DNA of 64,000 nt from Candidatus Woesebacteria bacterium RIFCSPLOWO2_01_FULL_39_61 (GTDB taxonomy: Bacteria > Patescibacteriota > Microgenomatia > UBA8517), in the NCBI GenBank assembly GCA_001793155.1, contig MGHI01000020.1, forward strand, positions 9,898 to 73,897, written 5' to 3'. Below the pieces are notes generated by a model. It was not told where the DNA came from. It saw nothing but the letters and a program-made list of their open reading frames with translations, and searched no databases. Below, piece after piece: positions 2,760 to 20,274 of the stretch. The translations under genes and the position numbers were made by a program. Numbering within the stretch: position 1 is the stretch's first letter; each line of letters begins with the position of its first letter.

Positions 2760-3666
2760 AATAACAATTTCAATTGGTATCCCAACTTATCTAGCCGGTG
2801 AACATTTGGTGTCCACTCTACGAAGTATTTATCGACAAACATTTTATTCTCGGTTAAAAGAAATTCTATTAGTGGTAGACGGAGGTTATCTGGATCCAAA
2901 AATTGTTGGGAAAATAGGGAACAAAAAATTAAAAATAGTTCCTTTTACAAAAAGAAAAGGTCAGTCAACTCGAGTAAATGATATCTTTGCACAAGTTGAT
3001 TCGGACCTACTAATTTTGGCTAACGATGACGTGATTTTAGACGAAAAAGTCGTCGAAAAAATGGTCAGGATGTTTATAAAAGATCGATGTGACCTACTCT
3101 GTACAAAAGTTGAACCTCTTGCTCCCAAAACCAGATTAGAGAAGATTTTGAAACCCTCCCATTATATGAAATATGAAATTCTAAATGGGCTTAAAAATAA
3201 ACACGATAGTTTTTTAGTCAGTAACGGGAGACTTCTGGGTTTGTCAATCCGTTTATATAAGGGTATGAAACTCTCGCGGCAGTTATGGAATGGCGACGCC
3301 TTCATTTATCTGCATGCCAAATTACTCAACTATAAAATTTCATTCGTCGATGAAACCTTATGCTATTTCAGGGACCCTCAAAAACTTGAAGAGTATTTGA
3401 GTCAGTCAAAAAAATTTCGTAATTCACTATCAGAAAACAAGAATTACTTTAAGGGAGAGACTTTTATCAGAAAATATTATGAAATACCTAAATCCGTACT
3501 TGTTAGAGCTTATATATCAACATTCAAAAAACATCCAATCGATTTTATTTTGTACAACATATTATATTTGTGCTCTTATATTTGTTTGAGTTTCTACGAC
3601 CCGGAAAGAAACGTTGCATCAAAAAGGGCTTATTGGGAGGTTGATTACTCAACGAAGCAGATTTAA
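2749..3666 (+). CDS. GT2 family glycosyltransferase (tandem paralog 1, divergent)
   Basis: N-terminus ISIGIPTY..LLVVDGG and C-terminal KKHPIDFILYN shared with the ORFs at 4633, 5547 and 6466; GGAG 5 nt upstream of the ATG. Confidence 0.6.
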   Translation: MKNKITISIGIPTYLAGEHLVSTLRSIYRQTFYSRLKEILLVVDGGYLDPKIVGKIGNKKLKIVPFTKRKGQSTRVNDIFAQVDSDLLILANDDVILDEKVVEKMVRMFIKDRCDLLCTKVEPLAPKTRLEKILKPSHYMKYEILNGLKNKHDSFLVSNGRLLGLSIRLYKGMKLSRQLWNGDAFIYLHAKLLNYKISFVDETLCYFRDPQKLEEYLSQSKKFRNSLSENKNYFKGETFIRKYYEIPKSVLVRAYISTFKKHPIDFILYNILYLCSYICLSFYDPERNVASKRAYWEVDYSTKQI

Positions 3667-3690
3667 AAAGTGTTTCTATCTAGCATAATT

Positions 3691-3798
3691 ATGAATAAAA
3701 TAGCAACGGCTACAATTGGAATACCGGCTTATAACGAGGAAGCAAATATTGGAAAATTCATATATCTACAAAAAAATAAGTTAAAAATATATGAATAA
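3691..3798 (+). pseudogene. 5' remnant of a GT2 paralog (about 35 codons, then frame decays)
   Basis: Encodes MNKIATATIGIPAYNEEANIGK.., about 80-90% nucleotide identity to the first ~70 nt of the GT2 at 4633; runs into the start of the FkbM gene at 3791. Confidence 0.5.
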
Positions 3799-4627
3799 TT
3801 TAATTTATATAAAGTTATTATCAACTGCAATGTTTGAACCAATTTCAAAAAGGATAAAAAAGAGCGCTGAAAATAATCTTAGGAACATAAAAATTTTAGG
3901 CTTAACAATATCATTTCTGAATATTCGGGAACTTTTAGAAATATTCAAAGATATTTTCATCCTGAAAGAGTATGACTTTGTTTCGCGAAAAGCAAACCCC
4001 AAAATTATAGACTGTGGTAGTCATATCGGATTGGGTGTACTGTTTTTTAAGAAAATATATCCTAAGGCAGAGATAACCGCTATAGAGCCAAACCCCAAAA
4101 ATTTTCGCATTCTTAGTCAGAACATAAGCCAAAATAATCTTAAGAAAATTAAACTTGTAAATGCTGCAGTTACAAGAGCGGGCAGCAGGGTCATTTTCTA
4201 CAGGAGTAAACAAGCTACTAATGTTTTTGCTAGGGAAATGAACTTGTGGTCCTGGGGAGATTTTGTAAAAGGTGCAATGAATAAAAATTTAATTAATTAT
4301 GAAGCTTTAGAAGTACCATCTTTACGACTTTCTTCATTAATAACAAAGCAGATTGACTTTTTAAAAATTGATATCGAGGGCTCCGAGAGCGAAGTGCTTA
4401 GTGAAATAAAAGATAAATTATATCTTGTTAAGAAGTTAGTAATAGAATTTCACAATGAAACAAAAGAAGATTTTAAGAAACTCAAGAAAATACTTGAGAT
4501 TTTGGATAAAGAATCATTTAATTTTTATCTCATGCAAAAGAAGAAAATATTAGATGAAAATCTTGTGCAGGAGACTCTGCCGCCAAGACTATTGATAAAA
4601 GCTACAAATTCAATTTTACTCAATTAA
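3791..4627 (+). CDS. FkbM-family SAM-dependent methyltransferase
   Basis: ..IIDCGSHIGLGVLFF..ITAIEPNPKNFRIL..KIDIEGSESEVL.. (Methyltransf_21/FkbM signature). Confidence 0.7.
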   Translation: MNNLIYIKLLSTAMFEPISKRIKKSAENNLRNIKILGLTISFLNIRELLEIFKDIFILKEYDFVSRKANPKIIDCGSHIGLGVLFFKKIYPKAEITAIEPNPKNFRILSQNISQNNLKKIKLVNAAVTRAGSRVIFYRSKQATNVFAREMNLWSWGDFVKGAMNKNLINYEALEVPSLRLSSLITKQIDFLKIDIEGSESEVLSEIKDKLYLVKKLVIEFHNETKEDFKKLKKILEILDKESFNFYLMQKKKILDENLVQETLPPRLLIKATNSILLN

Positions 4628-5550: not shown

Positions 5551-6461
5551 AAAGAAAATTACCTACAGCAACAGTTGGCTTGGCTGCTTATAACGAAGAG
5601 GCAAATATCGCAAATTTAATTAGGTCAATATTAGCCCAAAGAGAAGTTGGATTCCGATTGAAACAAATTCTTATCAATTCAGATGGCTCGTCTGACGATA
5701 CGGTAAAAATTATTAAGTCGTTTAAAACACGGAAGGTTAAAGTAATTGATAACAAAGTGCGCCGTGGACAACCTTTCAGAATGAGACAAATTTACAAGAT
5801 TTTTAACAGTGACTACCTAATTCAGACGGATGCAGATACTTTATGGGGACACGAGAATGTAATAAAAACCTTAGTAGCGGCTTTTGAATCTAACGAGAAT
5901 GTTGCGATGTGTGGAGGAAATATTATACCAATTGCGCCGAAAAGCTTAATACAAAAGGCTATTTATTCATCCACCAACGTTTACAGAAAATTCGCCGATG
6001 ATATAAACGAAGGGAACAATATCTTCACAGTACATGGTCTTTTGATGGCTTTTAGAAAGAATTATATAAAAACTATGATGCTTCCTGACGTTATAGCGAA
6101 CGATAAATATTTATATTTAAAGTGTGTTTCAGGCGGTTATGAGTACAAGTTTGTTAGAGATGCGATTGTTTATTTTGAACTTCCGCTGACATTAAAGGAT
6201 CAAATTAAGCAAAACACTAGGTTTAAAGTGGCAAAGAAGCAACTTTTCTTTTACTTCGACAAAGAATTTTTGTTAAAAGAGTACGAGAGACCAAAGACTG
6301 TATTTAAGTTGTTTATTGAAGAATTTATAAAACATCCTATACCTGTCCTTTATGTATTTTTGGTAAATCGTTACTGCAAGATTCTTGCCATTTTTAAAGA
6401 AAAGAAGATATCAAACATTCTTTGGGATAAATTGGAAAGGACTAAGGTTGCAGTAAACTAA
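5547..6461 (+). CDS. GT2 family glycosyltransferase (tandem paralog 3)
   Basis: Start moved to the internal ATG at 5547 (MKRKLPTATVGLAAYNEEANI), giving an ATGA overlap with the upstream stop; C-terminal ..KHPIPVLYVFLVNRYCK.. conserved with paralog 4. Confidence 0.7.
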   Translation: MKRKLPTATVGLAAYNEEANIANLIRSILAQREVGFRLKQILINSDGSSDDTVKIIKSFKTRKVKVIDNKVRRGQPFRMRQIYKIFNSDYLIQTDADTLWGHENVIKTLVAAFESNENVAMCGGNIIPIAPKSLIQKAIYSSTNVYRKFADDINEGNNIFTVHGLLMAFRKNYIKTMMLPDVIANDKYLYLKCVSGGYEYKFVRDAIVYFELPLTLKDQIKQNTRFKVAKKQLFFYFDKEFLLKEYERPKTVFKLFIEEFIKHPIPVLYVFLVNRYCKILAIFKEKKISNILWDKLERTKVAVN

Positions 6462-9817: not shown

Positions 9818-11443
9818 ATGAAAATAAAAAATTTCACTATAAATTTTACAATTCAAAACCAAACTTTGGTAAAAGTTCAGAATTGGTTTGAGGAACACGC
9901 CTTAAGTTTAGTCGTCTTTGTTCTTACCGTGATTTCCGGACTTGTCTTTATTTATTACTACCTAAATGGTTTGGGACTTGCATACAACGATGCACGAAGT
10001 CATTTGGATATTGGGCGAAGGGTTGTAGAAGGATTAAAGCCGGGTCTTGCCCAGATCGGTTCTGTTTGGCTTCCTTTAAATCACATTTTAATGATTCCGA
10101 CGGTATGGAGTGATTTTATGTGGCATTCGGGATTGTCTGGAGCCCTGATATCAATGATTTCATTTGTTTTGACTGGGGTTATAGTCTACCTATTTTTAAA
10201 GAAGTTGGGGGTCGGACTCTTGGGCAGATTTTTTGGTGTTTTAGTATTTGCGGCAAATTTGAATATTTTATATTTACAGTCAACTGCGATGACGGAGTTA
10301 CTACTTATAGCGACGATGACTGCCGGGGCTTACTACCTCATGCTTTGGGCAAAAAAGGACACGGTTCTTGACCTTATTAAGGCAGCCTTTTGGATAATGA
10401 TGTCGACGACAGTCAGGTACGACGGCTGGTTTCTGCTATTATTTTCTGCCGGACTGGTTGCTTTAACCGTATTTTTTAAAAAGGGTTATAAAACAACCGA
10501 AGGGATGCTTGTTTTATTTTTGACTCTTGGAGGCTTCGGAATTGCTCTTTGGTTTTTATGGAACTTGGTCATTTTTAAGGATCCTTTATATTTTATTTTC
10601 GGTCCTTTTGCGGCCCACACGCAACAGGAACAATTGTCCGCTGCCGGTAATTTAGCCACTAAAGGAAACTTACTTTTATCGATTAAAGTATATCTTTACG
10701 CCTTGATTTACAACTCCTACGCTTACACCGCCATTGTGGGGTTTTTTGGAGCGATAGCATTATGGGTAAATAAAAAAATTAAGGGTGAGATAAGGGTGGC
10801 AAGCGTCGCTTTAACAACTCCGCTTCTATTTAACGTTATCGCTTTGTTTTTAGGATTTTCTGTACTTTTTATACAAGGTATAGCCGGAAACACTTGGTTT
10901 AATGTTCGCTACGGAATAATGCTTGCTCCCTCGATCGCGATATTTTCCGGTTATTTAGTAGATAAAGTTAAAGATTTAAGATGGATAATAATCGGTCTAT
11001 ATCTGTTTACCACATTTTTTGCATTCACCAGCGGAGATGCTGTAACAATCGACGATGCAAGGGTAGGGTCGAGCCAGAAAAACGTTACTGAGGTTTCTGG
11101 CTGGCTCAAAGCAAATACTTCCAATCGTGAAGGATTTGTTCTCATTTCAGCGGCAAGTCACGACGCAATAATCTTTTCCTCGGGACTTCCAATGAAAAAA
11201 TTTATTCACGAAGGAACTGGAGCGTATTGGCAGTCGGCGACAACGACACCCGATCACTGGGCTCGATGGATTGTGATGAGGACACACGATGACAACGATC
11301 TCGTGTGGAAAAGTGTCAGTCGTTCGGAGGGATTTATTAAGTACGACCTGGTAGACAGCTATCCTTTTGCTGATATATATGTATTAAAACAGGAAAATCT
11401 GCTTGATTTAAACACAAAGCCTGTATTTTCGAAACAAAAATAA
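9818..11443 (+). CDS. multi-pass membrane protein with C-terminal soluble domain, putative GT-C-fold
   Basis: 541 aa; N-terminal polytopic region (..AYNDARSHLDIGRR..), C-terminal ~150 aa hydrophilic. Confidence 0.35.
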   Translation: MKIKNFTINFTIQNQTLVKVQNWFEEHALSLVVFVLTVISGLVFIYYYLNGLGLAYNDARSHLDIGRRVVEGLKPGLAQIGSVWLPLNHILMIPTVWSDFMWHSGLSGALISMISFVLTGVIVYLFLKKLGVGLLGRFFGVLVFAANLNILYLQSTAMTELLLIATMTAGAYYLMLWAKKDTVLDLIKAAFWIMMSTTVRYDGWFLLLFSAGLVALTVFFKKGYKTTEGMLVLFLTLGGFGIALWFLWNLVIFKDPLYFIFGPFAAHTQQEQLSAAGNLATKGNLLLSIKVYLYALIYNSYAYTAIVGFFGAIALWVNKKIKGEIRVASVALTTPLLFNVIALFLGFSVLFIQGIAGNTWFNVRYGIMLAPSIAIFSGYLVDKVKDLRWIIIGLYLFTTFFAFTSGDAVTIDDARVGSSQKNVTEVSGWLKANTSNREGFVLISAASHDAIIFSSGLPMKKFIHEGTGAYWQSATTTPDHWARWIVMRTHDDNDLVWKSVSRSEGFIKYDLVDSYPFADIYVLKQENLLDLNTKPVFSKQK

Positions 11444-12853: not shown

Positions 12854-13720
12854 ATGAAACTTGTTAAAAGAACCTTACTTTCCCTAATCCTTTTACTAGG
12901 CTTGCTTTCCTTTGCCTCTGAAGCTAACGCCCAAAGTGCTCCGCCTGAATTTCCCGCCTGTACTAATCCCGGAGGGACGTTAAGAATATCTTATGCCGAC
13001 GGAGAGCACGCAATAGTCGGGGAGAGCGGGCTTAGGGTCGGAGCCGACGCAGTTTACGATCTTGAAGGAGGAAACGTACAGCAATGTTTCTGTTCGGTGG
13101 ACGGAAGCGGTGTGCAGACAAATTGGTGGAAGATAAGTTCACTTGATCAGGATGAAATTGACACTTTGGTAAAATTAGGCTGGAACTTTGTTCCGAGCGG
13201 AACACCTTGGGGGTTGGATTCAAGCGCCTATATGGCAAAAAATGAAGCTTACGCCTGCGGAGGAGGATTTACTACCACGACCACATCATCCGGAAATCCC
13301 GGAGCACCGTCCTGCACAGCCGATAGGCCCTCATCCCCTCAGATTACTTCTATTGTCAGAAACGGTTCTTCCGCAACTATTTCCTGGACAAAGAGCGATA
13401 AAGCGACCCATTATACAATTGCCTACGGAACAGTAGTCGGAAACTATCCTTACGGAGTGCCCAATACAGGAAATGTAACTTCCTATACAATTAACGCGTT
13501 GGATCCTAACACTTTTTACTACTACGAAGTATATGCGGTCAACATTTGTATGCCATCGGAGCCGTCTTCGGGTGGTCAGGTTTTGGGAGCTCCAACAGGT
13601 GGTGTGCTTGGACTAGCTGCAACCGGAAACCTGGAATTAATTGTTGCATATCTTACTATCGGAGCGGCATCGATTATTGCAGGTATTCTTCTTAAGAAAA
13701 GATCAGACCGTAAGGCTTAA
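12854..13720 (+). CDS. secreted Cys-rich/FN3-domain surface protein with C-terminal LAATG sortase sorting signal
   Basis: Signal peptide MKLVKRTLLSLILLLGLLSFASEANA; FN3-like ..PQITSIVRNGSSATISWTKSDKATHYTIAYG..YYYEVYAVN; C-terminus LAATG + hydrophobic span + KKRSDRKA; GC content and GC3 visibly higher than flanking genes. Confidence 0.6.
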   Translation: MKLVKRTLLSLILLLGLLSFASEANAQSAPPEFPACTNPGGTLRISYADGEHAIVGESGLRVGADAVYDLEGGNVQQCFCSVDGSGVQTNWWKISSLDQDEIDTLVKLGWNFVPSGTPWGLDSSAYMAKNEAYACGGGFTTTTTSSGNPGAPSCTADRPSSPQITSIVRNGSSATISWTKSDKATHYTIAYGTVVGNYPYGVPNTGNVTSYTINALDPNTFYYYEVYAVNICMPSEPSSGGQVLGAPTGGVLGLAATGNLELIVAYLTIGAASIIAGILLKKRSDRKA

Positions 13721-13730
13721 CTTTTTCTTC

Positions 13731-14273
13731 ATGAGAAATTTGCTTGCCAATACCTTTATCACCTTAGGAATAGTATTAATTATAATTGCAGGACTTTTGC
13801 TTTGGCAGAGGTATAATCCCCAAAGACTTGCTTTTTCCGACGTAGGTAACGAAATTAGTGAATCAATAAATGAAGAAAAGAATCTTCCTGTTGCATTAAA
13901 AATAGAAGATTTGGATATAAAGCTTCCGGTATTTCCCGCCAGAAGCCAAACGGGGAAATGGGAAACGACTACAAAGGGTGTTTCCTATCTGGTTTCATCC
14001 GCAATGCCGGGACAGGTTGGAAACAGTATATTTTACGGTCACAACTATAAAAATATTTTGGGGAATTTAAAAAATGCAAAACCAGGTCAGATTATTGAGG
14101 TAAAACTGGCAAACGGGGTTTGGAGAAAATTCAGAATTGAGTATGTTCAGACAGTTGCCCCCAACCAAACCGGAATATTGGATCAGACAGATGATAAGAG
14201 GCTAACCCTCTATACCTGCACCGGATTTTTAGACTCCAAAAGATTAGTTGTTACCGCCCTCTTCACACCTTAG
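13731..14273 (+). CDS. sortase (class E-like)
   Basis: Start at the internal ATG 13731, after the upstream stop; N-terminal TM anchor; catalytic Cys in ..RLTLYTCTGF.. (TLxTC), His in ..IFYGHNY.., Arg in ..KRLVVTA.. Confidence 0.75.
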   Translation: MRNLLANTFITLGIVLIIIAGLLLWQRYNPQRLAFSDVGNEISESINEEKNLPVALKIEDLDIKLPVFPARSQTGKWETTTKGVSYLVSSAMPGQVGNSIFYGHNYKNILGNLKNAKPGQIIEVKLANGVWRKFRIEYVQTVAPNQTGILDQTDDKRLTLYTCTGFLDSKRLVVTALFTP

Positions 14274-14280
14274 AGGTGAA
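14262..14280. repeat. REP-like palindrome (CACCT-TAG-AGGTG core) overlapping the sortase stop codon
   Basis: Perfect 5-bp stem with 3-nt loop and extended arms; the sortase TAG stop is the loop. Confidence 0.55.
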
Positions 14281-14334
14281 AAGGTATTTACACCCTGGGT
14301 AATTTAACATAATCTATATTTAGAGGAAAATCAT

Positions 14335-15009
14335 TTGCCAGGTAGGAAAATTCCACTCGTAAATGGTGAGATATACCATGTAATTAACCGTGGTATTGCT
14401 TCAAGACCCCTTTTTTTAATTAAAAGGGATTATAGGCGAAAACTTTCAACAATATTTTATTATCAGAATGTAAATTTACCTTTCAGATATTCATTCTTCA
14501 TTCGCTTACCGAGAGATAGGAGGCAAGTTATTCTAGACGGATTTAAAGATAAAAGAAATTTTCAAGTCGAAATAATAGCTTATTGTTTAATACCGAATCA
14601 TATACATTTACTATTGAAACAGGTAAGAGATAAAGGAATCTCAACTTTTATGAGTAATGTTACCAACAGTTATACCCGTTATCTTAATTCAAAAAGGCAT
14701 GAGATAGGTCCGATTTATCAAGGAAAATTTAAAGCTGTACGGATAGAAAGCGACGAACAGCTCTTACATGTCCAAAGGTACATACATCTTAACCCTTTCA
14801 GTTCATATGTATTAAAAAGTACGGAAGAGCTTGAGGGTTACCCTTATTCTTCCCTCCCAGAATATTTGAATAAGACTGTCTATGGATATTGTAAAAAAGA
14901 TATAGTTATGCACTTTTTTAAAGATAAAGTCACTTTTAGAGATTTTATTCTGAATCAAGCGGATTACCAAAGGAATCTTGACGAAATTAAACACTTAACC
15001 TTAGAATGA
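14335..15009 (+). CDS. REP-associated tyrosine transposase / IS200-like (Transposase_17, COG1943)
   Basis: TTG start; ..GEIYHVINRGIA..AYCLIPNHIHLLL (HuH) ..LHVQRYIHLNP..YPYSSL.. typical of RayT/IS200 Y1 transposases. Confidence 0.75.
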   Translation: MPGRKIPLVNGEIYHVINRGIASRPLFLIKRDYRRKLSTIFYYQNVNLPFRYSFFIRLPRDRRQVILDGFKDKRNFQVEIIAYCLIPNHIHLLLKQVRDKGISTFMSNVTNSYTRYLNSKRHEIGPIYQGKFKAVRIESDEQLLHVQRYIHLNPFSSYVLKSTEELEGYPYSSLPEYLNKTVYGYCKKDIVMHFFKDKVTFRDFILNQADYQRNLDEIKHLTLE

Positions 15010-15018
15010 CAGTTTTCC

Positions 15019-15048
15019 GAGGTGTGAAGCTATTTCACCTCTAAGGTG
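15019..15048. repeat. REP-like nested palindromes (GAGGTGTGAA..TTTCACCTC and CACCT-CTA-AGGTG)
   Basis: Inverted copy of the upstream element, directly after the transposase stop. Confidence 0.55.
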
Positions 15049-15054
15049 CACAAC

Positions 15055-15483
15055 TTAAAGTTCCATTTCGTCGACTTGTGGGGGCTTTTTAGAATAGTCC
15101 GACAGACGTAACCAACGTGGTGTAATTTTAAAAAAAACCGAATTGGCTTGCCCTCTATACTCGCTTAAATCCGGATGATCGGTAAAATAGGTTTGTTCGC
15201 AACTTGCGTACTCGGGACTGTTTTTGTCAATCAATTTAGCTATTCCGTCGTATTGAATATTCGCCTCTGTAAAAGAAAATCCAAAAACCAAAGATACTTG
15301 GTCGTTTTCCAATAAATTATTCCATTTTCTACTATCACTTTTTGTACTTAGCAAAATTGTCAAATCCTCTTCTATCGTATAAACCAGTGTCGCAGCTTCG
15401 GTTTTTCCGCTTTTGTCAGAAGTTGCTAAAACACAGAGCTTGGGCTCTCTACTTTCAAGAATTTTGTAAACTTCTTCTTTCAT
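15055..15483 (-). CDS. pyridoxamine 5'-phosphate oxidase-like FMN-binding split-barrel protein
   Basis: Start set at the internal Met (MKEEVYKILE..) because GGAGGGGG sits 8-9 nt upstream; ..SLVFGFSFTEANIQYDGIAKL.. is PNPOx-like. Confidence 0.5.
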   Translation of the reverse strand: MKEEVYKILESREPKLCVLATSDKSGKTEAATLVYTIEEDLTILLSTKSDSRKWNNLLENDQVSLVFGFSFTEANIQYDGIAKLIDKNSPEYASCEQTYFTDHPDLSEYRGQANSVFFKITPRWLRLSDYSKKPPQVDEMEL

Positions 15484-18962: not shown

Positions 18963-20180
18963 ATGAAAATTCAAAACGGTTATATTCACCTTGCCAAATC
19001 TGCTCTTGAAGATTTTAGAAGAAACAAAGTACGCACATTTTTGACTTCGCTGGGAATAATGATTGGAGTTCTTTCCGTGGTTTTGTTGATTTCATTAGGG
19101 TTAGGACTCAAAAATTATTTAAAACAACAGTTTGAGAGTTTGGGTGCGAATCTGATAATTATATTTCCGGGAAACATTTCATCAAGCGAGGAGGGAGGTG
19201 GTCTAGCGAATTTTGGTGCGGGGTTTGCGGGAGGAGCTAATTTTGACGAAAGAGATTATGAGAGCTTGAAAAGATCTGTTGAAGCGGATTATGTTGTTCC
19301 GCTTTTCATGAAAAGTAGTGTAGTTGAAAGCAATGGTAAAAGGAAATTAGGTTATTTAATGGGATCGAATGAGGAGTCTTTTAAAATTCTTAATTTGGAA
19401 ATTCTTGCCGGTGATTTTTTTCTGAAAGGGGATGTTTCCGCAAGGGCCAAAAAAGCCGTGCTGGGTTATAATTTGGCCGATGCCTTATACGAAAAACCAG
19501 AAGATGCAATCGGAAAAACCATAAGGGTTGCAGATCAAAGATTTAAAGTAATAGGTGTTTATAAGAAAAAGGGAGACAGGGAACAGGATGGTGCAGCGGT
19601 AGTTCCATATCGGAGTACGTTCGGTACTTTAAATCCCGATAAAACATTTTTTACGATTTATCTTGGAACCATAAATGAGGATAAAGTGGAGTCAATAAAA
19701 ATTCAAGCGAAAGAAGTGCTCCTCAAAAGGTATAAGGCGGATGATTTTACTGTTACCGAGCAGTCTGAACTTTTATCAACGGTTAATCAAATATTCAACA
19801 TTGTAAACGGAGTATTAGTTGCCATCGGTTCGATTTCGTTAATCGTAGGGGGTATCGGAATAATGAATATTATGTATGCAACTGTCACTGAAAGGACAAA
19901 AGAGGTTGGTATTAGGCGTGCGGTAGGTGCGACCCAAAAAGATATTTTAAAGCAATTTCTGACAGAAGCAGTAATGCTTTCGGTTTTTGGAGGACTTTTA
20001 GGATTAATTCTTTCATCATTAATCGTTTTGGGCATACGTGTATTTTTTCCGGCGTCAATAAATCTTTTTTCTGTTGTCATCACTTTGGTTATTTCTTCAG
20101 GCATAGGAATATTTTTCGGAGTTTTTCCTGCACGACGTGCCGCTAAGCTTTCCCCGATTGAGGCGATAAGATATGAATAA
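18963..20180 (+). CDS. ABC transporter permease, FtsX/MacB-type
   Basis: N-terminal TM, large periplasmic domain, then 3 C-terminal TMs with ..ERTKEVGIRRAVGATQKDIL.. FtsX motif. Confidence 0.8.
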   Translation: MKIQNGYIHLAKSALEDFRRNKVRTFLTSLGIMIGVLSVVLLISLGLGLKNYLKQQFESLGANLIIIFPGNISSSEEGGGLANFGAGFAGGANFDERDYESLKRSVEADYVVPLFMKSSVVESNGKRKLGYLMGSNEESFKILNLEILAGDFFLKGDVSARAKKAVLGYNLADALYEKPEDAIGKTIRVADQRFKVIGVYKKKGDREQDGAAVVPYRSTFGTLNPDKTFFTIYLGTINEDKVESIKIQAKEVLLKRYKADDFTVTEQSELLSTVNQIFNIVNGVLVAIGSISLIVGGIGIMNIMYATVTERTKEVGIRRAVGATQKDILKQFLTEAVMLSVFGGLLGLILSSLIVLGIRVFFPASINLFSVVITLVISSGIGIFFGVFPARRAAKLSPIEAIRYE

Positions 20181-20274
20181 AATCCAAAGTGGAGGTGTGA
20201 TAGTATAAAACGAAATCTGGTATGTCATTCTCTTTTAAGATGAAAAACTCCGCGTATAATTCGGAAAGAATGTC

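Follow-up and report, generated by a model that had tools for sequence, protein, structure and literature searches.

A probable REPtron/TIRtron-type cassette, with a Y1 HuH transposase-like gene between inverted hairpin units, in a Woesebacteria genome

The window analyzed here is a stretch of 64,000 nucleotides of Candidatus Woesebacteria bacterium RIFCSPLOWO2_01_FULL_39_61 (assembly GCA_001793155.1, contig MGHI01000020.1, positions 9,898 to 73,897). Between a sortase gene and a convergent PNPOx gene, it holds one copy of a gene for a transposase-like protein of the Y1 HuH type, bracketed by two inverted copies of a short unit that contains a hairpin. The sortase open reading frame (ORF; Pfam Sortase, 82.7 bits) stops at the TAG of positions 14271-14273, which is the loop of the left hairpin, and the right-end unit stops 2 nt short of the PNPOx stop codon (15055-15057). 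The cassette, of about 0.8 kb, is thus wedged exactly between the two convergent genes. Its ORF (14335-15009, + strand) is an intact Y1 HuH transposase-like gene of 224 codons for amino acids (aa), with a TTG start and a Shine-Dalgarno sequence, AGAGGA, at 14322-14327. The features of the cassette, and a relic found further along the window, are the following (R1 is a covariance model of the unit, presented below):

14261-14309, + strand: left-end unit, made of hairpin, spacer, and third half-site (R1, 43.0 bits, E = 1.9e-10; gapless alignment with 93 other cassette ends)
14266-14278, + strand: left-end hairpin CACCT-TAG-AGGTG, with the sortase stop codon as its loop (14271-14273)
14287-14315, + strand: promoter-like element, with a -35 box TTTACA (14287-14292), a 17-nt spacer, and a -10 box TAATCT (14310-14315), proposed from a comparative count
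14599-14607, + strand: HuH histidines H89 and H91, invariant in the homolog alignments
14779-14781, + strand: catalytic tyrosine Y149 in RYIHLNP, invariant in the homolog alignments
15006-15053, - strand: right-end unit, an inverted copy of the left-end unit (R1, 41.6 bits, E = 4.9e-10)
15019-15028, - strand: third half-site of the right-end unit, GAGGTGTGAA
15036-15048, - strand: right-end hairpin CACCT-CTA-AGGTG
20184-20206, + strand: decayed relic of a unit, CCAAAGTGGAGGTGTGATAGTAT, with third half-site and spacer but the hairpin lost, directly after the stop codon of an ABC-permease gene (20178-20180)

The left sequence (14261-14284) reads cTTCACACCT-TAG-AGGTGAAAAGG and the right one (15019-15048) reads GAGGTGTGAAgctaTTTCACCTCTAAGGTG. 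A repeat search identifies in them a perfect inverted repeat of 16 nt (100% complementary), formed by CACCTTAGAGGTGAAA at 14266-14281 and TTTCACCTCTAAGGTG at 15033-15048. With up to two mismatches, the 15-mer has exactly two occurrences in the 64 kb, on opposite strands, for a shuffle expectation of 0.11, and none of 100 shuffles reaches two. Rfam has no match in the window at the gathering threshold, nor in positions 14150-15150 at E ≤ 1. At the right end, a generic scan finds no terminator, and no run of T follows the hairpin.

The protein matches the Pfam family Y1_Tnp (PF01797, "Transposase IS200 like") with 38.8 bits over residues 74-151. Its sole sequence match in the PDB is TnpAREP of Escherichia coli (4er8; E = 0.06, 15% identity), which is also the best PDB fold match in a Foldseek search with the AlphaFold2 model of the protein (4er8_A, E = 1.3e-5, TMt 0.70; model pLDDT 87, pTM 0.85). 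The runners-up are the TnpA structures of IS608, ISDra2, and IS200 (TMt 0.40-0.57). Alignments of 19 and 62 homologs (56-67% identity) show no variation at residues H89, H91, R148, Y149, H151, N153, and P154. The motifs of the window protein are NHIH, YQ, and YIHLNP. The family consensus is PNHFHLL, LFQGKF, and RYIHLNP, within the ranges NH[FILV]H, (L/I)(F/Y)QGKF, RYIHLNP, and YPYSS. The latter motif lies in the C-terminal extension (residues 169-173), where S173 is invariant and S172 is conserved in at least 90% of the 62 homologs. Among the 62 members, no credible Pfam family at E ≤ 1 corresponds to a C-terminal domain of helix-turn-helix (HTH) type, the domain not having been searched on its own, and the AlphaFold2 model has three short C-terminal helices at 189-223. 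The clade of the Candidate Phyla Radiation (CPR) to which the protein belongs has a 29-aa insertion at residues ~42-70 that is absent from proteobacterial plasmid relatives. A protein 100% identical to that of the window is recorded on 39 contigs. Judged by its catalytic residues and motifs, the protein is an intact enzyme, and its activity would follow by analogy with characterized relatives of the fold. The main claims of the initial annotation all hold; it had described inverted palindromes bracketing a Y1 HuH transposase with RYIHLNP, the sortase TAG within the left hairpin loop, and a palindrome nested in the downstream copy. This last element (GAGGTGTGAA at 15019-15028) is real and, on comparison with related loci, is the conserved third half-site of the unit.

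The anatomy of the unit becomes clear when many loci are compared. When one genome per GTDB species was scanned, 441 related loci were confirmed, and the best 80 of these 441 (numbered L001 onwards) were analyzed. All 80 come from Microgenomates-type Patescibacteria, and several genomes contribute two or three diverged paralogs; where paralogs share one locus, their identity to the query is 34-56%. Read towards the gene, the cassette ends have in common a unit of about 48 nt that starts with a hairpin, xCACCT-NNN-AGGTGx (stem of 5-9 bp, loop of 3 nt), and continues with a spacer of about 9 nt and a third half-site, GACACCT(T/C)(T/G)GG(T/A)A. The third copy of the stem word lies about 12 nt from the hairpin. 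The position of the units is about -56 to -69 relative to the start codon and +22 to +45 relative to the stop codon. Left ends and reverse-complemented right ends form a single alignment (A2) of 94 sequences with one single-column gap. Exact inverted repeats of a length matched by at most 1 of 100 shuffles flank the gene in 46 of the 77 testable homolog loci. Because many left ends hold the loop in the other orientation, this test under-counts, and the covariance model R1 was used instead. In the 80 loci (1.17 Mb), it gives 172 matches: 62 loci have a unit upstream of the gene (+), 52 have one downstream (-), and 50 have the two; these flank counts are partly circular, since R1 was trained on flanking units, and the matches to solo (gene-less) units are independent. 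A symmetric form, with a half-site on either side of the hairpin, occurs among both flanking and solo units and resembles the doublets of repetitive extragenic palindromes (REPs) (L033, L035, and L055).

Two observations concern variation of this layout. Among 30 loci of the TAG/CTA type, the left-end loop is TAG in 12 and CTA in 18, and the right ends, reverse-complemented, have TAG in 23 of 26 cases. In 18 of the 30, the two hairpins share one top-strand sequence, the tails being inverted. The 15 loci without an R1 match mostly belong to a Beckwithbacteria-type variant. Loci of this subfamily (L020, L027, L029-L031, L040, L064, and L074-L076; for example, L029:4815-4850 and 5555-5590) have no third half-site and a longer hairpin, ATCACACCT-CTA-AGGTGTGAT or ATCACACAC-CCG-GTGTGTGAT. 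This hairpin adjoins the gene on either side, and its two copies mostly form a direct repeat that includes AGAGGTA.

Covariation is found both within the units and between units and genes. In A2, pairing was a criterion for choosing the inner five stem pairs, which makes their 100% pairing uninformative, but these pairs still vary with compensation (pair 10/14 is UA in 83 and CG in 11 sequences; pair 9/15 is CG in 87, AU in 4, and UA in 3). Pairs 3-5 are independent of the selection, and the unselected stem pair 5/19 is CG in 29, AU in 19, and UA in 16 sequences. The third half-site is 95.7% complementary to the 3′ arm of the hairpin, with 13 double changes versus 1.5 in shuffles. Whole sets of the three elements change together, as in L067 (CATTC-CGG-GAATG with GACATTCCGG) and L045 (GATC-CGG-GATC with GACGATCCGG). 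For example, the JAFGMK paralogs, all from one genome, have the different hairpins CACCC-CTG-GGGTG, GATC-CCG-GATC, and CACCT-TGG-AGGTG. At the level of sequence, the unit co-varies with its paralog. Paralog-specific repeat variants are the pattern known for REP-associated tyrosine transposases (RAYTs) and their cognate REPs (PMC6006769). A separate case of co-resident paralogs is L018 (JBMORX010000009.1), with three diverged genes within 17 kb (3385-4047, 10001-10660, and 19234-19899; 37%, 56%, and 44% identity to the query), two of which (10001-10660 and 19234-19899) have R1 flanking units.

Units also occur without the gene. R1 identifies about 22 solo sites in 17 of the 80 loci, mostly intergenic or at gene edges. 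JGI metagenome contigs were scanned for the exact pattern of the Woesebacteria-type unit, which gave 36 loci, only four of them with a Y1 gene. After removal of duplicates there are 29 unique solo units; for 20 of these, the contig continues for 900 nt or more on the gene side without a RAYT. A metagenome contig (L084) has three near-identical units within 7.3 kb, and two contigs of the L001 genome together have at least four solo sites. Of 23 solo units, about 10 overlap a stop codon, that of a gene running into the unit from its half-site side. The scan missed the JGI contig of the window itself, which matches the pattern; it is therefore not exhaustive, and absence from this genome cannot be concluded from it. 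The possibility that the solo units are orthologous copies of one site was rejected, with only three of them lying at the ABC-permease site. Within the window, R1 gives another match at 13135-13180, inside a gene for an fn3-domain protein and including AAATTGACACTTTGGTAAAA, which is probably due to chance (13.8 bits, E = 0.07).

The closest relatives of the locus (L001-L003, 65-67% identity) share its neighborhood, made of genes for a glycosyltransferase, a hypothetical protein, TrmD, a laccase-like protein, HlyD, and an ABC transporter. In these relatives, the cassette lies downstream of the ABC permease and not between sortase and PNPOx. Directly after the permease stop, one finds an intact solo unit in L001 and the left end of the cassette in L003. 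The window has its decayed relic directly after the same gene, and GAGGTGTGA is found in the 64 kb only at 15019 (the right end) and at 20192. As R1 does not detect the relic, the evidence for it is moderate. In L002 (8740-8834), the last ~48 nt of the permease gene are duplicated, giving two ...IEAIRYE* ends, and this may be a scar of excision or insertion. The sortase ortholog of L002, which is without the element, ends with VVTAEII*, and that of the window with VVTALFTP*, its last codons TTC ACA CCT TAG being the hairpin arm and loop. Insertion or retention of the cassette thus appears to have rewritten the last three to four sortase codons, in agreement with the earlier suggestion that the element abuts or created the 3′ end of this gene. 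A clean empty site was sought and none was found; the sortase ortholog in L002 is followed by a different gene. The comparison shows that the cassette moved on an evolutionary time scale and is fixed and quiet in this population.

The left unit is associated with a promoter-like element. In the window, the -35 box overlaps the third half-site of the left end, CACCC (14291-14295), and in most loci the left-end hexamer overlapping the third half-site is TTGACA. Either TTGACA or TTTACA is followed at 16-18 nt by TAnnnT in 43 of 50 left ends, versus 12 of 44 mirrored right-end controls. A generic promoter scanner gives no score to the -35/-10 site of the window, so the claim rests on the comparative count, from which the left unit is predicted to carry the -35/-10 promoter of the Y1 gene. 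In the left ends of the 43 loci, the predicted -10 box lies close to the start codon, with its end at a median distance of 8 nt, so that the mRNAs of most family members may be leaderless or nearly so. The window copy (14310-14337) instead has a 19-nt gap after the -10 box, with a Shine-Dalgarno sequence and a TTG start. Left-type solo units retain the TTGACA half-site and a plausible -10 box (L034:1009-1057, L037:3939-3987, L023:841-889, and L055:4145-4193), and dispersed units might therefore donate outward-reading promoters.

Taken together, these data make it quite probable that the cassette is of the REPtron/TIRtron type, that is, a class-2 Y1 HuH gene of the RAYT kind, nearest to subclass 2.1, placed between inverted cognate units of about 48 nt. 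It is not an IS200-type insertion sequence, and its repeats are not canonical GTAG REPs.

The subclasses of TnpA-Y1 proteins were defined by Quentin et al. 2018 (PMC6006769), whose Table 1 gives the signatures. Subclass 2.1, which is Group 1 RAYT of Bertels et al. 2017 (PMC5581495), has NHVH or NH[YF]H, W[EQ] or FQ, YIELNP or Y[IV]HLNP, and a C-terminal SS, with a median of ~238 aa, and 20 of the 26 described TIRYTs fall in it (PMC6006769). TIRYTs are tyrosine-transposase genes with terminal inverted repeats (TIRs), the "TIRtrons" of Di Nocera et al. 2013 (PMC3733652). Some TIRtron repeats are self-complementary, and some genomes have moderately abundant families of solo or dimer TIRs (PMC3733652). 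The CPR family shows the second signature of subclass 2.1 (NH[YF]H-type, FQ, Y[IV]HLNP, and SS), and its length agrees with the range of about 225-238 aa shared with the TIRYTs (224 aa in the window). As in TIRtrons, the copy number is low, with diverged paralogs, and long TIRs stand at fixed distances on both sides of the gene. The nearest plasmid-borne relatives, two "transposases" of R. rubrum and P. aeruginosa, have 26-29% identity and show the other signature of subclass 2.1, with the motifs NH[IV]H, LW[QE], YIELNP, and WSS; their genes are flanked by perfect or near-perfect TIRs of 19-38 nt containing GGGGTCAG and GGGGACAG. There are also differences. The word GGGGWSAS, present in the majority of described TIRtrons and in R. 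rubrum and P. aeruginosa, is absent, whereas the CPR word is the CACCT/AGGTG hairpin with its half-site. The C-terminus of the CPR clade is shorter and contains no detectable HTH or DnaA_C-like Pfam family, whereas subclass 2.1 has a distal domain of this type (Bac_DnaA_C, HTH_23, or HTH_28). The promoter-like element in the left TIR of the CPR clade is another difference from TIRtrons. Finally, the hosts are Patescibacteria, which lie outside the surveys (PMC3733652, PMC6006769, and PMC5581495), and a full-text literature search found one paper, which concerns another subject.

Likeness to the canonical REP or REPIN systems with their RAYTs (E. coli TnpAREP/YafM, Pseudomonas; subclasses 2.2 and 2.5) is partial. 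Both have a Y1 HuH protein with Y-x3-NP, 4ER8 being the best structural match of the window protein, and a single-copy gene between inverted palindromic units, with a repeat variant for each paralog. In the relatives of the window, gene-less units are dispersed extragenically, often just past stop codons, and some form symmetric doublets, as noted above. In contrast, neither A2 nor the solo units show a GT[AG]G column at the hairpin foot, the pre-stem positions being variable (e.g., TTG, TCA, and ATC), and the stems are much shorter in the CPR units (5-9 bp). Abundance differs too, since CPR units are counted per 50 kb at best, with none extra in 77 kb here, versus hundreds per genome for canonical REPs. 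The initial annotation had proposed a REP-RAYT-REP arrangement as known from proteobacteria. Its layout is upheld, but the equivalence with GT[AG]G REPs is not. As the motifs fit subclass 2.1 and not 2.2 or 2.5, "TIRtron/REPtron-like" is the more exact description.

For the mechanism, the model is the single-strand "peel and paste" chemistry of the IS200/IS605 elements. In the paradigms provided by IS608 and TnpAREP (4er8 and 2vjv-type complexes), the protein binds hairpins on single-stranded DNA and the tyrosine mediates cleavage and rejoining. If it acts like TnpAREP of E. coli and the TnpA of IS608, the protein would bind the hairpin formed when the DNA is single-stranded, for example on the lagging-strand template. 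Y149, with a metal site at H89/H91, would then cut and rejoin nearby DNA, which could occasionally copy or move single units and, rarely, the whole cassette. Protein bound at the left unit could repress its own promoter, thus providing autoregulation. In this genome, the cassette would be a fixed, single-copy resident of low activity.

Several points weigh against a REPtron/TIRtron-type cassette. The protein scores 50.6 bits with the NCBIfam model REP_Tyr_transpos (NF047646), below its equivalog cut-off of 80. The hairpins of the window are weak (5-bp stem, about -3.6 kcal/mol, z-scores of -0.4 to -1.3, on DNA and for both strands), and since they fold no better than shuffles, their reality rests on conservation and covariation and not on energy. 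Over the 64-kb window, R1 detects only the two flanking units and no intact extra copy, and ~13 kb of further contig beyond it (~77 kb in total) contains no further unit. The recurrence of the motif, which the initial annotation took as the sign of a REP family, is not found in these ~77 kb of the genome beyond the flanking pair and one decayed relic, although close relatives do have gene-less copies. There is no presence/absence polymorphism on the 23 population contigs that were read via the neighboring TrmD, and with the cassette at the same place on all 23 there is no sign of current activity in this population. The circular part of the R1 flank counts and the selection of inner stem pairs, mentioned above, belong to the same side. 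To our knowledge, there is no biochemistry on any subclass 2.1 enzyme, nor on the CPR clade.

There is another explanation, in which the gene is a domesticated cellular gene and the hairpins are regulatory, the left one as an operator over the -35 box and the right one as a stabilizer or terminator at the 3′ end of mRNA. There would be no mobilization any more, and the units without a gene would have been recruited as RNA or operator elements. In favor are the overlap between the -35 box and the third half-site and the conservation of the -10 box, and exactly two units are found per 20 kb in most loci. The solo units that overlap the stop of an inward-reading gene (~10 of 23) recall REPs acting as 3′ RNA elements, and the cassette is fixed in the population. 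However, near-identical solo units at many unrelated sites (e.g., L084) require a copying mechanism, and the catalytic histidines and tyrosine are invariant across 62 homologs of about 60% identity. Regulation also leaves aside the relocation of the cassette between close relatives and the 26-fold enrichment of tandem partial duplications at the outer hairpin arm, and no T-run follows the right hairpin. A purely regulatory role is therefore rather unlikely.

An ordinary autonomous insertion sequence of the IS200/IS605 family, recently inserted between sortase and PNPOx, is less probable still. The name of the Pfam family would suggest it, and the HuH/Tyr core, the ferredoxin-like fold, and the small subterminal hairpins at both ends are shared with the TnpA of IS608 and ISDra2 and their elements. 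The top-strand identity of the two hairpins at 18 of the 30 TAG/CTA-type loci is as in IS608, and the position of the cassette differs among relatives. But the CPR protein has Y-x3-NP and not Y-x3-Q, and its 224 aa include a C-terminal extension, versus ~150 aa for core-only proteins. With the NCBIfam model transpos_IS200 (NF033573), it scores 14.5 bits for a cut-off of 55, and its fold is nearer to TnpAREP than to the TnpA of IS608 or ISDra2, for which the match is weaker. The cassette is not multicopy, with no second copy in 77 kb and diverged paralogs where several share a locus, it has no TnpB partner, and its ends are inverted units of 45 nt. The last explanation, a chance similarity of the flanks or a sortase terminator next to an unrelated palindrome, could invoke the short stem and the non-significant folding z-scores, but none of 100 shuffles gives two copies and dozens of independent loci show the same layout and distances with compensatory changes, so that it is refuted by the comparative data and deserves practically no credence.

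RAYT/REP and TIRtron systems have so far been cataloged mainly in Proteobacteria, Cyanobacteria, Bacteroidetes, and Acidobacteria. Subclass 2.1 is the largest RAYT group, and for it one survey reported no REP-like partner and another only TIRs. The 441 confirmed loci, drawn from GTDB species representatives, form a large conserved CPR clade in which enzyme and repeat pair can be aligned, with covariation and paralog-specific variants, and very small, streamlined genomes still maintain such elements. The protein of 224 aa and its 48-nt substrate would make a compact test bed for DNA recognition by subclass 2.1 enzymes. A more ambitious proposal is that this is the first REPIN/RAYT-like replicator of CPR, with a new tripartite repeat (stem, stem, half-site) serving as a portable promoter in its left-type form and as a stop-abutting 3′-end element in its right-type form; this we regard as speculative and on balance doubtful. 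For annotation, a REPtron/TIRtron-type cassette explains why Microgenomates bins repeatedly contain a "transposase", why short palindromes abut stop codons, and why the C-terminus of the sortase differs from that of its ortholog. The cassette is of moderate interest to specialists of mobile DNA and is otherwise ordinary for this locus.

At 13 of 93 ends, the outer hairpin arm and 5-10 nt of the flank outside it are duplicated in tandem, versus 0.5% for random 8-mers (26-fold). The ends concerned are in L008, L009, L013, L015, L019, L023, L037, L055, L057, L059, and L073 (e.g., L015:10700-10745 and L019:5150-5200). In the examples inspected by eye, the duplication junction lies at or inside the 3-nt loop. 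These duplications may be the footprint of nicking or slippage at the loop. Such junctions, and the occurrence of either loop orientation at the left end, hint that the enzyme may nick in or beside the hairpin loop, like Rep-type HuH proteins, and not outside the hairpin, like IS608 TnpA.

Upstream of the sortase, the fn3-domain protein (12854-13720) ends with LAATG, a hydrophobic helix, and KKRSDRKA, a tail that resembles a sorting signal. It is probably a substrate of the adjacent sortase.

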